Virus record (IMG/VR): IMGVR_UViG_3300046314_000711
Strand: one strand, 5' to 3'
Length of the DNA: 64,000 nt
DNA from: a virus
The notes beneath the pieces were generated by a model. The model had not been told where the DNA came from. It ran no database searches and worked only from the letters and a program-made list of their open reading frames with translations. The position numbers were made by a program, and so were the translations under genes. Shown in pieces: positions 5,166 to 53,869 of this stretch. The stretch's first letter is position 1. Every line of letters starts with the position of its first letter.

Positions 5166-6197
5166 ATGATTTCAAACAAACACTTCCCTATCCTCGACTT
5201 AGTTAAATTTGAGTACGCCCATGTAACTCACATTTCACAGGCTAACATAGACTGTACTATTACTTTGGTTCGTGATGGTGAAGCAGTGAAGTACCCACTA
5301 CCATCTAGCATTTCGTATCGTCTGCGTAAATCAATCGGCAAAGTGGCGAGGTTTGCCACTCCTCACCCAATCTGCGTAGCTTGGGTGGGTGCTCGCATTG
5401 TATGTGCTGAGTGTCCTGATAAAAACGCTCTACTATCTGCTCGCAAGAACCAGTGGAAGAGTCTGATCGAAATTAATGTCACAGCATTTAAACCCCCAAC
5501 AGATGCTTACTTCGATGGTCAATACGTCTACGCGCTAGATGCTGGGCCAGAAGTATTTGATCGTAACTACGGTGTGGTTAAGTTAAGCGCTTGTTTTGAT
5601 TTGTACCACTTAAATGATATCGCATGGACAAATCCAGCACGTGCTTGCTTTGCTTACAAGAACGGACACAATTGGGTCGCTACTGCCCCTTGTACATCAG
5701 CTGCTGGTAGTTTTTTGCAGTTAGTGGTAGATGATGTCAGTGCTAGTACAGCTGCTGTATTTGACTCAATGGCTATGATTGATGCAATTCGCTTTGTCAA
5801 TCTACGCTTTGTTAATTACGCAGCAGGTCGATTAGCTGATGCGTTCGACTTTGAGGCAATTGAGCCGCTAGGTCTGCCGTTACTGATGATTGAGCACGGT
5901 ACATTCAATCTCGGGGAATTAACTCCAACAGTGCAGATGACTTGTCCTGCGCCATTGACATTCTCACAAACACTGGCTTGGTTAATTGGATTGCACCAAC
6001 GTGTGACTACGCTCGATCAGTTCATTACATTGAAAGAAGCAATTAGAATGCTATTGTCTAAAGGTTGCACCCGCAGCGCTGCGGTAATTGGGGAGGGTGA
6101 GGAACTAGCTGACGGTGCTGTAGATCTATCGAAGAATGAGGTTGTGTATTCTGCTCGCAAACAGTTCAACGGTATGGCGGTAGTTCAGTTCGTATAA
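5166..6197 (+). CDS. Hypothetical protein
   Basis: 343-aa ORF, no recognised motif. Confidence 0.75.
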   Translation: MISNKHFPILDLVKFEYAHVTHISQANIDCTITLVRDGEAVKYPLPSSISYRLRKSIGKVARFATPHPICVAWVGARIVCAECPDKNALLSARKNQWKSLIEINVTAFKPPTDAYFDGQYVYALDAGPEVFDRNYGVVKLSACFDLYHLNDIAWTNPARACFAYKNGHNWVATAPCTSAAGSFLQLVVDDVSASTAAVFDSMAMIDAIRFVNLRFVNYAAGRLADAFDFEAIEPLGLPLLMIEHGTFNLGELTPTVQMTCPAPLTFSQTLAWLIGLHQRVTTLDQFITLKEAIRMLLSKGCTRSAAVIGEGEELADGAVDLSKNEVVYSARKQFNGMAVVQFV

Positions 6198-25260: not shown

Positions 25261-25344
25261 CCGTGTATAGGCTAGCCTGGTCAAGTCACTCGTTTTGGGG
25301 GCGAGAGTAGTAATACATCGCTGGTTCGAATCCAGCTACACGGA
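25261..25344 (+). tRNA. tRNA-Pro(UGG) with long variable region and extended acceptor
   Basis: CCGTGTA/TACACGG, CTCGT-TTTGGGG-GCGAG, canonical T-arm. Confidence 0.85.
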
Positions 25345-25360
25345 CAAAGAAAATTAATAT

Positions 25361-26801: not shown

Positions 26802-26885
26802 GTAGGCGTGGCAGAGCGGTCGAATGCGCGGGATTGCAATCCCCGATCCTTAAAGGACACGTCAGTTCAAATCTGACCGCCTACT
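26802..26885 (+). tRNA. tRNA-Cys(GCA) with long variable arm and extended acceptor
   Basis: GTAGGCG/CGCCTAC, U73, loop TTGCAAT. Confidence 0.85.
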
Positions 26886-26902
26886 CAATAAAGTTTTTAT
26901 AT

Positions 26903-34213: not shown

Positions 34214-34316
34214 GCGCTTGTAATTCAGTGGTTAGAAGGTCACCCAGCTATGATGGCACGATACGCCGTAAAAGCACTGGCTCTGTTGGACGTGGGTTCG
34301 AATCCCACCAAGCGCG
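34214..34316 (+). tRNA. tRNA-like RNA with extended anticodon arm (identity unclear)
   Basis: GCGCTTG/CAAGCGC, canonical D and T arms, about 50-nt anticodon region. Confidence 0.65.
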
Positions 34317-41791: not shown

Positions 41792-41874
41792 TCACCAGTA
41801 GAGGAATTGGTAAACTCACCTGACTGTTAATCAGACGCTTAATTGCACTGTTGGTTCGAAGCCAACCTGGTGAG
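41792..41874 (+). tRNA. tRNA-Asn(GUU) with long variable region
   Basis: TCACCAG/CTGGTGA, loop CTGTTAA, canonical T-arm. Confidence 0.85.
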
Positions 41875-42551
41875 CACAGCTGATTTTGCATCGCGATAGA
41901 ATCCCCCTTAGGACCGTTTGATGTCAACGGTAGGGTGGCGTAGGCTGCTCAGGCGTCCGAGTAGTTGCCGTTAGCAATAGGCGTTATTACACTGCTTAAC
42001 AAGCTGTGGTGATGCTGCGGGATAATGAGCAGACGCTCCGATAAGGCGCCTCCGGATTTGTAACCGGATCATTTTAAAATACTCAAAATGACCGTCAACT
42101 ACTGCACGACCAAAGATCCGGCAGTTTTACGTACACACCCGATAAATATAATAAAAACTCAAACAAAATGACCATCTTTTCTTGGATCACTAAACCGCTG
42201 CGCGACATTGCCGCCTTGCAAACTCAGCACGATCGCATAGCTCGACTAGCACTTGACTTGCAAACGCAGTGCAATGATCGTGATGACTATATTAAACAAC
42301 TGAAAGCTCGTATCGATCACATTGAAGGCGTGATCAGAACTCACACGTTCTAACATCACTCGGTATTGCGGCAACGATGGGTTGAGCACAATACCCCAAT
42401 CCCTTATGATAGACTTAATACTACACCAACAGAGCTAGTAACCGAGACAACTCTGCTAATGACAATAAACTGCTGACAAAGTCGATAAATTCCTTCTCAG
42501 GATTTGCAGTTAGTTGGGTGTGGTACTTTATTAACTACCAATGGAGTTTAC

Positions 42552-46251: not shown

Positions 46252-47685
46252 ATGACAACAGCAACATTTGCACACGCAGTTTTAACTCAACCAACTACAA
46301 CAACCAATGGCATGAAAGCATTCGCTGGCACTGGTAACGCTTGTGTTCAACTTTTCTATGCGATCGGTGCGATGCGTGGTAAAGACGTTATTCCATTGTT
46401 TAAAGCAGCCTATGCAGAAAACATGGAAATTGCACTGCGAATCGCACAATGGAGCCGTGACATTCGTGGTGGAGCAGGAGAGCGTCAAATTTTCAAAGAT
46501 ATTCTTGCTCACTTGGAAATTACGAATCAAGATCAGCAAGTACGAGCACTAATCGATAAGATTCCAGAAATTGGGCGTGCTGATGATATGTTGATCAATT
46601 GGAAGACAGTGGGGGTTCGTAACTATGCATTTACTGTATATGGGGAACAACTTCGCAACGGTAATGGACTATTCTACAAATTCCTACCTCGTGAAAAAAG
46701 CGCAAAGAAGCGTCTCGCAGCAGAACTCCGTTCATTCTTCGGATTGACTCCTCGTCAGTACCGTAAGCTGGCTTCTGCTAATACTACTGTTACCGAAACA
46801 CAGATGTGTGCGAAGGATTGGGATAACATCAACTTTAGCCACGTGCCTTCTGTTGCTGCCTCACGTTACAAAAAAGCATTTAAAAGAAATGCTCCCGTTG
46901 TGTTTACTGAATATGTTGAAAAACTGACCAAAGGCGATCCGTCCGTAAAGGTAAACTCAAGCGCAATCTTCCCGTACACAGTGATCAAAGGCTGGCATTC
47001 TTCTCGCATTGATCCAACGATTCGTGCTCATGTGAATGCACAGTGGGCAGCACTACCAAACTACGTAGGTAATGCGAGTATCTTGCCATTAGTTGATGTA
47101 TCTGGTTCGATGAATTGCCCAGCTGGTGGAGACACTTCAGTGACTTGCCACGATGTTGCACTATCACTCGGTCTGTACCTGTCTGAAAAGAATACTGGTA
47201 AGTTTAAAGATATGTTCCTGACGTTCTCCGAAGATCCTGAACTACTGCACCTAACTGGTGACGTGATGGATCGTTTGGAAACAATGGATCGTAGCAAATG
47301 GGACATGAGCACTGACATTGTCAAGGCACTTGCTAAGATTTTGGAAGTCGCTGTTGCTGGTAACGTACCTCAAGGTGAAATGCCAGAAATCTTGTGTGTG
47401 ATGTCCGACATGCAATTCAATGAGGCAGCAGAGGCAAACGATAGTGCGATGGAAAGCGTGCGAACTCAATATGCTGCAGCCAACTACACATGCCCAAAGT
47501 TGGTGTGGTGGAATCTAAATCACAAAGGTAACGTACCTGTGACAGCCAATGAGCAGGGCGCAGCACTTGTATCGGGGTTTAGCCCAGCGATTGTAGCAAG
47601 CATTCTGAGTGCGGATCCAGATGATTTCACACCATATGCATTAATGATCAAATCCGTCTGTGTACCGCGATATGATGTGAAATAA
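46252..47685 (+). CDS. DUF2828-family protein (helical repeat + vWA; Ro60/TROVE-like architecture)
   Basis: TTNG, RDIRGGAGER, VPSVA, MIDAS DVSGSM, FLTFSEDP, SDMQF, WWNL, VSGFS. Confidence 0.85.
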   Translation: MTTATFAHAVLTQPTTTTNGMKAFAGTGNACVQLFYAIGAMRGKDVIPLFKAAYAENMEIALRIAQWSRDIRGGAGERQIFKDILAHLEITNQDQQVRALIDKIPEIGRADDMLINWKTVGVRNYAFTVYGEQLRNGNGLFYKFLPREKSAKKRLAAELRSFFGLTPRQYRKLASANTTVTETQMCAKDWDNINFSHVPSVAASRYKKAFKRNAPVVFTEYVEKLTKGDPSVKVNSSAIFPYTVIKGWHSSRIDPTIRAHVNAQWAALPNYVGNASILPLVDVSGSMNCPAGGDTSVTCHDVALSLGLYLSEKNTGKFKDMFLTFSEDPELLHLTGDVMDRLETMDRSKWDMSTDIVKALAKILEVAVAGNVPQGEMPEILCVMSDMQFNEAAEANDSAMESVRTQYAAANYTCPKLVWWNLNHKGNVPVTANEQGAALVSGFSPAIVASILSADPDDFTPYALMIKSVCVPRYDVK

Positions 47686-47713: not shown

Positions 47714-47821
47714 GGGACTCTAGCATAATTGGTAGTGCTGGGAACTCTTACGGAGCATCTGCACAAGCGGGTGTTCAAAATAATTCCTAAGGCCTCGGTT
47801 CGAACCCGGGGGGTCCCACCA
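47714..47821 (+). tRNA. tRNA (Ile/Met, CAU if spliced) with 32-nt hairpin insert in the anticodon
   Basis: GGGAA-CT-C-[47748-47779]-AT-AA-TTCCT; intact D, T and acceptor; ACCA. Confidence 0.75.
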
Positions 47822-50177: not shown

Positions 50178-50786
50178 ATGAACAACCCTTACTTCCCACC
50201 ATCCATCTACGGTCACGAGTACGATTTTCTTAAGCCTAAAGTCAAATCTGCAAAAGGGACAAAGCCTCCAAAAGACAAAAGACCAGTGAACTGGCGCGCT
50301 GGTAAAAAATGTACCTGTGCACTAGCTTGTATTACACCATCGGGGCGGGTGTTAATCTGCCACCCAACTAACGGTCCATTCAAATTCGGCTGGGGGTTTC
50401 CAAAGGGTATTAAGGATGATACCGATGCTGATGAAATCTCCGCCGCCCGCCGAGAACTGCGTGAAGAAACTGGAATAGACCTACCCGATGATATGCTGTA
50501 CATCAATTGTGGAACATTTGATTATACTAAGGAAAAGGTGTATCGTCTGTTTGCGGTGAAACTTGATTATGAAATTGACATCACTACACTGCACTGCGAA
50601 TCAATGTTTACAGATAAGGACGGTACTCAAAAACCCGAGATTGACAAATATGATCTTGTTAAGCTCGATCGTTGTTACAAAGATATGACGACAAAACAAT
50701 CCCTTGTGGTTAAGTCGTGTCTAGCAACACTCCGTGCTACATTGCGGGGTACTGCGAAAGACACTCGTGTCGATTGGGTACTATAA
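50178..50786 (+). CDS. NUDIX hydrolase
   Basis: WGFPKG...AARRELREETG. Confidence 0.88.
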   Translation: MNNPYFPPSIYGHEYDFLKPKVKSAKGTKPPKDKRPVNWRAGKKCTCALACITPSGRVLICHPTNGPFKFGWGFPKGIKDDTDADEISAARRELREETGIDLPDDMLYINCGTFDYTKEKVYRLFAVKLDYEIDITTLHCESMFTDKDGTQKPEIDKYDLVKLDRCYKDMTTKQSLVVKSCLATLRATLRGTAKDTRVDWVL

Positions 50787-52011: not shown

Positions 52012-52040
52012 TTGACCACTTATATTGAGGTGGTTAAAGT
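52012..52040 (+). promoter_or_regulatory. Sigma70-type promoter of the amber operon
   Basis: TTGACC-17-TAAAGT. Confidence 0.65.
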
Positions 52041-52078
52041 AAAAGCATATATACATTCATCAACCAAAGGATTTTAAA

Positions 52079-52438
52079 ATGTTGTAGATTTCTCACAAAA
52101 CATACTGCTACGTGTTCATCCGGACGGATATTCCATTAGCACAGCAAATCGTGCAGGCGAATCACTCGACCCTTCACGCTGGTCTTTTAGCCGGGCAATC
52201 CGGTCATAGTTATACACAGACCCCTTCTATAGTTTTATTACAGATTTCGAACGAAGCAAAGCTACTCAAAGCTCACGCTCGCATCACGTCCCTCAGGATT
52301 CCATGTGAGATTTTCTTCGAACCAGATGGCGAAGCTCTTGGATACGAGTCTTCGTTTACCTCTTTTGCTACTATTCCTGTGGCAGAAGAACTTCGCGCCG
52401 AGTTTCGGCAATATAGACTTTGGAGATCCCCACTATGA
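52079..52438 (+). CDS. Peptidyl-tRNA hydrolase (PTH2-like) with in-frame TAG at codon 3
   Basis: AAAGGA RBS, then ATG TTG TAG ATT in frame with YVFIRTDI..AQQIVQANH...FFEPD...TSFAT.P. Confidence 0.8.
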
Positions 52439-52740
52439 CTACTACCCTAACTACACTACCAGCTTTTGCAACCATGGATGACTACAAAACATGGAGAGCA
52501 GCATGGAGAGCAGAATACGCTCAACTAACACTCGACATTCGTGTTGCAAAGATTAAGCTACGTAGCACTAACCGTGAATACTCTGCCACAGGTACATCTG
52601 CACTGTACATTGCTACTACCGCAGCTCGCTGCCAGGTAACGAGCCACAGCAAACGAGCTAATAAGGCGATTGACACTCGCCATGCTTCAAAAGTGCGTGC
52701 AGCAGAACTATATGCAGCTACGCACGTGGAGGTGGCATAA
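52435..52740 (+). CDS. Small basic helical hypothetical protein
   Basis: ATGA overlap, GGAG RBS; Y.TWRAAWRAEY..L...IR..K. Confidence 0.75.
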   Translation: MTTTLTTLPAFATMDDYKTWRAAWRAEYAQLTLDIRVAKIKLRSTNREYSATGTSALYIATTAARCQVTSHSKRANKAIDTRHASKVRAAELYAATHVEVA

Positions 52741-52741
52741 A

Positions 52742-53305
52742 ATGTGGTAGATTGACAAGACTGAGCTCGAAGCTCAAATGAGGACTTGTTTTCAGTTCAA
52801 GACGATCGATATGCTGGACCACGGAAACATGGTCCACGCAGCATACATGCAGATCGTTGGTGATATTGAAAATGACAATCTGTCCAAGTATCCAGCGTGT
52901 ACAGCGCAGATTTGGCACAAGTATCGAGCGACTTTGCCAAGCCTTGAAACAATCCGGTTGTACCATGTGTATCACGATTGTGGCAAGCACTTGTCACTGA
53001 CGATTGATAACGAAGGCCGCCGGCATTATCCAAACCATGCGGAGCACAGTTACCAGCTGTTCTCCAAGTACAATGATGATGTGGTGGCTGCTACACTTAT
53101 CAAACACGATATGCACCTGCACATACTGCGTGGTGAAGAGCTTTGTCAGTTCCTTAAATCATTCGACTACATTGGGATTTTGTGGCTGACTGCATCAGCA
53201 GAGTTGCATGCAAATGCGGAAATGTTTGGCGGTTATGACCAAACCTCTTTTAAGATAAAGTTGAAACAGATAGAGAAAGCAGGTAAGCGATTGCTTTCTA
53301 CGTAA
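52742..53305 (+). CDS. HD-domain phosphohydrolase with in-frame TAG at codon 3
   Basis: GGAGGTGG RBS, then ATG TGG TAG ATT in frame with YHDCGK...HYPNHAEHS...LIKHDM. Confidence 0.8.
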
Positions 53306-53310
53306 GATGC

Positions 53311-53384
53311 GCCCATGAAACTTTAAGGTGAAGTGTCAGTCTCTAAAACTGGAAAACTCGGCTCGGTACCGAGCATGGGCACCA
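53311..53384 (+). tRNA. Amber suppressor tRNA(CUA)
   Basis: GCCCATG/CATGGGC, ACTT/AAGT D-stem, TCAGT-CTCTAAA-ACTGG, CTCGG/CCGAG T-stem, ACCA. Confidence 0.88.
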
Positions 53385-53443: not shown

Positions 53444-53869
53444 ATGCAAGACGTTAATCAACAACCAGTTAGTATCACCACCGCCACGTGGACCGCAACT
53501 CAGGTTCCGCATGTGTGGCAAACGGTGGATGGTAAATTTGTCTGGACAACCGAAACTGGGAGCTCTGGTGATGATATCCTATATCCAGATATTCCTGATG
53601 CAGTTCGTGCAATGAATGTCTACAACTTCTTTGTGTTGGAAGGTCTCGGAGAGCGTTTGCGCACAGAAGTATTCAATGTAACATTCAAAAAGTCTGACGG
53701 CACACTGCGAACAATGCGTTGCACTTCTAATCCATCAGCATTTCCAGTGCGCGAATCAACAGAACCCACAAAGGCTTCCAATCCTGATGTCCAGGTTGTG
53801 TTTGACCTCGATAAAAAAGCTATCCGGTCATTTCGACGGGATAGCATTGTGAGTTTTACAGTGGCTTAA
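53444..53869 (+). CDS. SH3/WYL_2-like (DUF2693-like) protein
   Basis: VTFKKSDGTLRTMRCT...VFDLDKKAIRSFR. Confidence 0.7.
   Translation: MQDVNQQPVSITTATWTATQVPHVWQTVDGKFVWTTETGSSGDDILYPDIPDAVRAMNVYNFFVLEGLGERLRTEVFNVTFKKSDGTLRTMRCTSNPSAFPVRESTEPTKASNPDVQVVFDLDKKAIRSFRRDSIVSFTVA

Follow-up and report, generated by a model that had tools for sequence, protein, structure and literature searches.

In-frame amber codons at the start of two putative tRNA-enzyme genes and an adjacent amber suppressor-type tRNA form a conserved, probably suppressor-gated phage operon

Here we describe an operon located at positions 52012 to 53384 of a 64,000-nucleotide stretch of the virus record IMGVR_UViG_3300046314_000711 (hereafter the window, meaning the whole of the stretch analysed), which is part of a 109.8-kb virus contig with an estimated completeness of 32%. 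The operon carries a gene for a PTH2-like (peptidyl-tRNA hydrolase-like) protein and a gene for an HD-domain protein, in each of which the third codon is the amber stop TAG, and it ends with a gene for a tRNA with the anticodon CUA. On the basis of a comparison with homologous loci of other phages, we consider it likely that both enzymes are translated only when the suppressor tRNA of the phage reads through the early stop. That the output of the two enzymes is gated by the suppressor had been the core proposal of the initial annotation, which was made from the sequence alone, and the proposal came through the comparative test described below: the TAG gate is present in nearly all lineages, the gate and the tRNA co-occur, and they appear to vary together. 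The two genes with TAG at codon 3, the coupled reading frame and the CUA tRNA were all found where that annotation had placed them. The features of the operon are as follows.

52012..52040, plus strand: sigma-70-like promoter candidate, TTGACC-17-TAAAGT, with 9 of 12 consensus matches.
52066..52090, plus strand: gate 1, read directly; Shine-Dalgarno (SD) sequence AAAGGA at 52066-52071 and ATG TTG TAG ATT at 52079-52090, with TAG at 52085-52087 as codon 3.
52079..52438, plus strand: gene 1, PTH2-like hydrolase, 119 amino acids (aa) with the TAG read, the frame being open but for the TAG; stop TGA at 52436-52438.
52435..52740, plus strand: gene 2, 101-aa protein; its ATG at 52435 overlaps the stop of gene 1 (ATGA); stop TAA at 52738-52740.
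52728..52753, plus strand: gate 2, read directly; SD sequence GGAGGTGG at 52728-52735 and ATG TGG TAG ATT at 52742-52753, with TAG at 52748-52750 as codon 3.
52742..53305, plus strand: gene 3, stand-alone HD phosphohydrolase, 187 aa with the TAG read; stop TAA at 53303-53305.
53311..53384, plus strand: tRNA(CUA) gene of the amber suppressor type, 74 nt with the CCA encoded, identified by ARAGORN, Rfam and its fold.

The tRNA(CUA) gene begins 5 nt past the stop of gene 3, on the same strand. A promoter at 52012, from which the initial annotation had the whole operon start, is inferred only. The match is present, and TTGACC-N17-TAACAT precedes the homologous operon in L036, a 78% identical relative; but in a consensus scan promoter-type matches such as this one were no commoner than in shuffled sequence. 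The start of gene 1, ATG TTG TAG ATT, is identical in L036 and in RsoM2USA, a Ralstonia phage that is the nearest cultured relative. The protein of gene 2 has no match to a Pfam or PHROG family. This gene is present in the close relative L119, and since RsoM2USA has an unrelated gene at that place, gene 2 is, judged by this comparison, not a conserved part of the module.

To see how rare the arrangement is, the 109.8-kb contig was scanned for an SD sequence followed by ATG, 1-5 codons, a stop codon and at least 80 open codons. Exactly two such sites were present in the contig; both have TAG as the stop and both are in this operon, and no site of the same pattern with TAA or TGA was found there. 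We concluded that the early-TAG start pattern at the two operon genes exceeds chance. In the complete 344-kb genome of RsoM2USA, the N-terminal stop pattern occurs three times with TAG, three times with TAA and three times with TGA, and the homologous gene pair makes up two of the three TAG cases.

The comparison set consisted of 92 homologous loci representing 68 distinct lineages, mostly phage contigs of 100-500 kb. An in-frame TAG is present in the PTH2-like gene, the HD gene or a fusion of the two in 65 of the 68 lineages. With the ATG taken as codon 1, the TAG stands at codon 3 in 52 cases and at codon 4 in 26, and the place corresponding to gate 2 reads M-x(1-3)-TAG in the homologs. Several cultured phages are among the gated ones. 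RsoM2USA has ATG TTG TAG ATT and ATG AAA TCG TAG ATC, and its PTH2-like gene is unannotated in the record. In GAP32, codon 4 of the PTH2-like gene and codon 48 of the HD gene are TAG, and the HD gene is annotated as split open reading frames (ORFs). The TAG is at codon 3 in XacN1 ORF364, for which we propose ATG AAG TAG as the true start, and likewise in ME3_195, Arash gp84c and pT24_235; because of this codon, the 'peptidyl-tRNA hydrolase' Arash gp84c is annotated as a 50-aa fragment. The base after the gate TAG is strongly biased (A in 81, G in 16, C in 5 and T in none of 102 cases), whereas the TAGs ending ordinary ORFs in the same loci show no such bias (A 44, T 44, G 39, C 30). A purine after UAG is known to favour amber suppression in E. 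coli.

The sequence comparison indicates that the segment after the TAG is translated and under selection at the protein level. The HD gene has nine codons between its TAG and Met13; when the window is compared with RsoM2USA, five of them show synonymous differences only, and a helix motif x-L-E-x-L-x-x-M after the TAG is kept in the HD homologs. In the AlphaFold2 (AF2) models, the residues after the TAG fall in a helix of the HD protein (residues 6-14) and in a strand of the PTH2-like protein (residues 8-15). The initial annotation had allowed that conservation might be missing upstream of the downstream start codons GTG 52112 and ATG 52778; the conserved residues after the TAG lie in precisely that region. 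In L037, there is no in-frame start between the TAG and strand beta1 of the PTH2-like protein. Moreover, in GAP32, L049, L050, L062, L079 and L084 the TAG is inside the HD domain, and therefore only readthrough would give a whole HD domain in these phages.

Two loci have locks of a different kind. The PTH2-like gene of L114 reads ATG...AAC CAG TAGG TGC; it runs into a TAG and the protein goes on in the +1 frame, which needs either a four-base reading of UAGG or a +1 shift. ARAGORN calls an Arg-CCT tRNA 480 nt upstream; CCUA is found within its loop, CGCCUAA (L114:5054-5131 and L114:5600-5680), and it is possible that this tRNA is a natural quadruplet decoder. The HD gene of L080 (start at about 5990-6010) begins ATG CATT GAC...; frame 0 would be ATG CAT TGA while the protein is in frame +1, so that CAUU has to be read as four bases, and a tRNA at L080:7319-7394 carries the four-base anticodon GAUG in a loop of 8 nt. 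Since each of these locks is matched by the loop of a local tRNA, lock and key appear to change together.

The tRNA(CUA) of the window scored 44.2 bits (E 1.8e-8) against the Rfam tRNA family, its minimum-free-energy fold is a cloverleaf (z -2.65), and it ends in ACCA at 53384. It has the traits of an elongator suppressor, namely a 7-bp acceptor stem, U33, the anticodon CUA, A37 and A38, and the CCA end; its anticodon loop, CUCUAAA, is common to 43 of 53 related phage tRNA(CUA) genes. Among the 422 distinct tRNAs of the homologous loci, 55 are tRNA(CUA). By ARAGORN, such a gene lies within 6 kb in 40 of the 68 lineages, often in two copies; RsoM2USA, G001 and G009, all of them complete genomes, have it elsewhere. 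The co-occurrence of TAG and tRNA(CUA), which the initial annotation had named as the thing to look for, was thus seen across dozens of lineages. In Arash, a gene recorded as tRNA-Phe (L145:3500-3574; OQ632216.1 49176-49247) is a tRNA(CUA) according to ARAGORN. L038, the one ungated lineage of the 68, is a complete 80-kb contig and has no detectable suppressor tRNA.

Several ideas about the role and charging of this tRNA were tried and rejected. It is not an initiator tRNA using TAG as a start codon: G1 is paired with C72, the anticodon stem lacks three G-C pairs in a row, and the distance from the SD sequence suits the ATG. The amino acid could not be read from tRNA similarity, because the nearest non-suppressor tRNAs among 367 other phage tRNAs scatter over Thr, Lys, Val, Arg and Met with no consistent isotype. 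The codon-3 'Q' in P0019 and P0027 is no evidence for glutamine: both proteins were gene-called with TAG as Q and are hence further TAG cases. The internal TAG of L049, L050 and L062 falls on an alignment position where 42 of 64 homologs have Trp. For the insertion of an unusual amino acid, which the initial annotation had listed as an option, nothing in this analysis gave support.

Some unusual tRNA genes were noticed in the same loci. L156:1484-1566 and L159:1485-1563, both on the minus strand, are non-canonical tRNA-like genes inside HD loci; by eye they have an acceptor stem of 7 bp and a long D hairpin, with UUCUAAA or CUCUAAA as the loop and TTCGA in the T-loop, and the one in L156 also ends in ACCA. 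Another odd tRNA-like gene, in L147, may by eye carry UCU rather than CUA. None of the three has an Rfam match, and those of L156 and L159 were missed by ARAGORN too. In addition, L098:10828-10906 is a tRNA with the anticodon UUA, the ochre suppressor type, in the same locus as a tRNA(CUA).

We weighed the evidence against explanations that need no readthrough at these genes. One is that ATG-NNN-TAG is a leader mini-ORF that tunes or couples initiation, the proteins being started at GTG 52112 and ATG 52778. An SD sequence with ATG, one sense codon and a stop is indeed the anatomy of a bar minigene, GTG 52112 opens an ORF of 108 aa, and gene callers put nearly all HD homolog starts at the invariant Met13. 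However, GTG 52112 is residue 12 of the gene 1 protein, and since strand beta1 of the model is made of residues 8-15, a start there would cut away half of the strand. Selection at the protein level acts on the codons that separate the TAG from the downstream starts, with the helix motif conserved, L037 lacks a usable downstream start, and the TAGs inside the HD domain cannot be leaders. The co-occurrence of tRNA(CUA) and the change to four-base anticodons would also go unexplained. In contrast to an independent short ORF, be it a bar-type minigene or a start-stop leader, the frame of the gates continues into conserved, structured residues. We consider this explanation improbable.

Another explanation, to which we give a small probability, is that ribosomes terminate at UAG and then re-initiate at the adjacent AUU, AUA or AUC without any suppressor, tRNA(CUA) serving some other purpose. 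It draws on the facts that ATT, ATA or ATC follows the TAG in 59 of 102 cases (ATG in 2) and that AUU is known as a weak bacterial start codon. But 41 of the 102 gate TAGs precede non-start codons, e.g. AAC, GTT, GGC, CTT or ACT, and neither the internal TAGs nor the four-base locks could work in this manner; the tight linkage of tRNA(CUA), and its absence from the ungated complete genome, would be left unexplained as well.

The genome itself is not globally recoded and uses the standard code, as the initial annotation had stated. TAG terminates 7 of the 79 long plus-strand ORFs, long ORF pairs in one frame with a TAG between them were not in excess in the 109.8-kb contig, and dropping TAG from the set of stops lengthened the ORFs no more than dropping TAA or TGA did. 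Global recoding was ruled out by these ORF and stop statistics together with those of RsoM2USA, in which the TAG-split ORF pairs that were inspected are ordinary neighbouring genes. No gene with an RF-1 domain was found in the 109.8-kb contig (about 32% of the genome), and no search for synthetase genes was made. That the two genes merely happen to be the noticed cases of an ordinary partial code-15 recoding, with TAG as sense in many genes, is very improbable: suppressor tRNAs of phages with recoded TAG are well documented (10.1101/2021.08.26.457843; PMC13037316) and the contig is only a part of the genome, but its 110 kb hold neither further N-terminal TAG genes nor an excess of TAG-split pairs, the complete RsoM2USA is likewise, and the authors of the XacN1 genome found nothing when they read past 18 TAG stops (PMC5852040).

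The AF2 model of the gene 1 protein has a pLDDT (predicted local distance difference test) of 90.5. Its best Foldseek matches were 2zv3, 1wn2, 3erj, 1xty and 1q7s, with TM (template modelling) scores of 0.65-0.71 and E-values down to 1.5e-5, and the nearest structures are archaeal Pth2 and human PTRH2 (Bit1). Pfam PF01981 was matched by 17 of the 24 aligned members of the family (best E 5.4e-21), and D17, Q26, H29, P82 and T94 are invariant in the family. The alpha/beta fold of Pth2 agrees with the PTH2-like label first given to gene 1. With its peptidyl/aminoacyl-tRNA hydrolase fold, this enzyme probably acts on the 3' end of tRNA.

The HD protein was modelled with a pLDDT of 93. It has no Pfam family match, and a Foldseek search of the model against the PDB gave no match at E <= 0.001. 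In the alignment of 15 sequences, H27, H78-D79, H99 and D123 are invariant, which are the metal-binding residues of the H...HD...H...D pattern. By VIA, the model aligned best with residues 248-446 of 3wfr/3wfo, from the tRNA nucleotidyltransferase structures 3wfo-3wfs (Z 14.4, root-mean-square deviation 3.1, 160 residues aligned), the next-best HD proteins having a Z of 10.5 or less; the profile of the gene 3 family matched the same tRNA nucleotidyltransferase chains with an E of 1.5e-4. The VIA Z-scores and the profile match thus link the protein to the nucleotidyltransferases. We take residues 248-446 of 3wfr to be the HD domain of a class II tRNA nucleotidyltransferase. The HD domain of E. 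coli Cca has repair activity. The HD label of gene 3 can accordingly be narrowed to an HD domain closest to that of the class II enzymes, a type built into CCA-adding enzymes, and the protein probably acts on the 3' end of tRNA also. Natural fusions occur in both orders, HD-then-PTH2 in P0013, XacN1, L083, L086, L095 and L113 and PTH2-then-HD in pT24 and L099; therefore it is likely that the two proteins work together.

A mechanism can be outlined as follows. With the host release factor 1 (RF1) alone, ribosomes would stop at the codon-3 UAG, having made a dipeptide. Full-length enzymes would require that the phage tRNA(CUA) be transcribed, processed and charged by a host synthetase, and the charged tRNA would then outcompete RF1 at a UAG-A context that favours suppression. 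If readthrough depends on the suppressor in this way, the enzyme output would track suppressor activity. As the TAG is at a non-conserved N-terminal position, the residue inserted there probably does not matter. For the purpose of the gate, we prefer one of two options: the enzymes for tRNA recycling or repair may be dosed to suppressor activity, or the arrangement may be a feedback loop, the enzymes acting on a tRNA pool whose state is reported by the suppressor. It could also provide a delay or a filter against leaky expression as in a coherent feed-forward loop; the downstream tRNA is on the same strand and may be co-transcribed. A more far-reaching idea, which we put forward only tentatively and think rather unlikely in full, is a self-referential homeostat with a dedicated 'reporter' tRNA, where the 3' end of the suppressor would be among the tRNA ends that the enzymes act on, and the making of the enzymes would both report how the tRNA pool stands and be limited by it; together with the four-base locks (UAGG and CAUU) and their matching tRNAs it would amount to a natural orthogonal codon/tRNA switch, which could include quadruplet decoding.

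A number of points weigh against suppressor-dependent translation of these enzymes or against parts of the account given here. The readthrough of UAG itself is deduced from comparison. With an invariant Met13 in the HD protein and a GTG at 52112, internal starts are possible, and maybe some protein is made without the tRNA. In 45 of the 102 cases the codon after the TAG is ATT, and as AUU can be a weak start, re-initiation after the two-codon mini-ORF is conceivable. The initial annotation had asked whether loci lacking the tRNA also lack the TAG. This stands for L038, but no tRNA(CUA) was found within 6 kb in 22 of the 68 lineages, only some of which were checked genome-wide, nor was one found in G010, an 81%-complete contig. 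The T-loop of the window tRNA (53357-53363) is CUCGGUA and not the near-universal UUCGAAU, from which the tRNA of L036 also departs. As for the PTH2-like protein, the gene 1 protein (P0001) scored 15.7 bits against PF01981, for which the cut-off is 23 bits, and the canonical GK motif of Pth2 is missing in most members of the gene 1 family, and the family lacks the DAG-like motif.

The contig has a G+C content of 43% and contains many tRNA genes according to ARAGORN, some of them peculiar. Rfam tRNA matches at window positions 34214-34316 and 47714-47818 are 103-105 nt long, far above tRNA size, and have no ARAGORN call, which suggests inserts or introns. The tRNA-Pro, tRNA-Cys and tRNA-Asn genes at 25261-25345, 26802-26886 and 41792-41875 are 84-85 nt in length, unusually long for tRNAs without a long variable arm. 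Around the operon, a gene of the DUF2828 and DUF7788 families is located at 46252-47685, a NUDIX hydrolase gene upstream of the operon at 50178-50786, and a gene with a WYL_2 (Sm-like SH3) domain directly 3' of the tRNA(CUA) gene at 53444-53869.

The module is present in laboratory phages of Salmonella, Cronobacter, Serratia and Acinetobacter, which makes experiments straightforward. The comparison also corrects the gene models of several cultured phages, in which the genes are unannotated, shortened or split. No published description of this gate was found in the literature, and the known systems resemble it only in part. The bar minigenes of lambda, consisting of an SD sequence, ATG, one sense codon and a stop, are free-standing. 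They share the start anatomy of the gates, and an unsuppressed gate would yield dipeptidyl-tRNA, a substrate of Pth, but the frame here continues into a conserved protein. The gene prfB, encoding release factor 2 (RF2), is autoregulated via an early in-frame UGA that is escaped by a +1 frameshift, and it senses its own product. In both, competition at an early in-frame stop sets how much of a translation-related protein is made; in contrast to prfB, a dedicated tRNA would here allow the escape without a change of frame, and neither product is a release factor. The UAGG/+1 site of L114 comes closest to prfB.

The PTH2 proteins of jumbo phages have been predicted to recycle peptidyl-tRNA in ribosome rescue (Iyer et al. 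2021, PMC7824862; RaK2, PMC3622015). These belong to the same protein family, and in the two papers there is no mention of an amber codon, of the HD partner or of a link to the suppressor tRNA. In synthetic biology, suppressor-tRNA feed-forward loops against leaky expression likewise use a gene with an amber codon that needs a co-expressed suppressor tRNA (PMC7969014); that system is engineered, whereas the present module is natural and conserved across phage lineages. It would thus be a natural counterpart of synthetic amber/suppressor switches, conserved in phages of Proteobacteria and Bacteroidota and possibly including four-base codon/tRNA pairs.

The closest comparisons are with phages that carry their own tRNA(CUA). 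In the code-15 phages (Lak, crAss-like and others, with TAG as Gln; 10.1101/2021.08.26.457843; PMC9523058), a phage tRNA(CUA) also reads in-frame TAG in a standard-code host, and the idea of timing or gating translation is common to both. In those phages, however, TAG is found throughout many genes, especially structural and lysis genes, whereas here the code is standard and two tRNA-enzyme genes are locked. The present module is also distinguished by a usually single TAG at codon 3-4, the UAG-A context and the position of the tRNA beside the genes. The 'orphan' suppressor tRNAs of standard-code jumbo phages (XacN1, PMC5852040; RsoM2USA, PMC8504454; the 'Sup-tRNA' of GAP32) are the same tRNAs and partly from the same phages. 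In the XacN1 and RsoM2USA papers no target of the suppressor tRNA is given, the search having been made past the ends of ORFs and not at their starts, and the RsoM2USA paper only speculates on its suppressor tRNA. From the sequence comparison we propose as targets ORF364 in XacN1, the unannotated PTH2-like gene and RsoM2USA_91 in RsoM2USA, and GAP32_397 to GAP32_399 in GAP32. This gives a concrete, testable answer to the question of what the suppressor tRNAs of XacN1, RsoM2USA, GAP32 and other standard-code jumbo phages are for.

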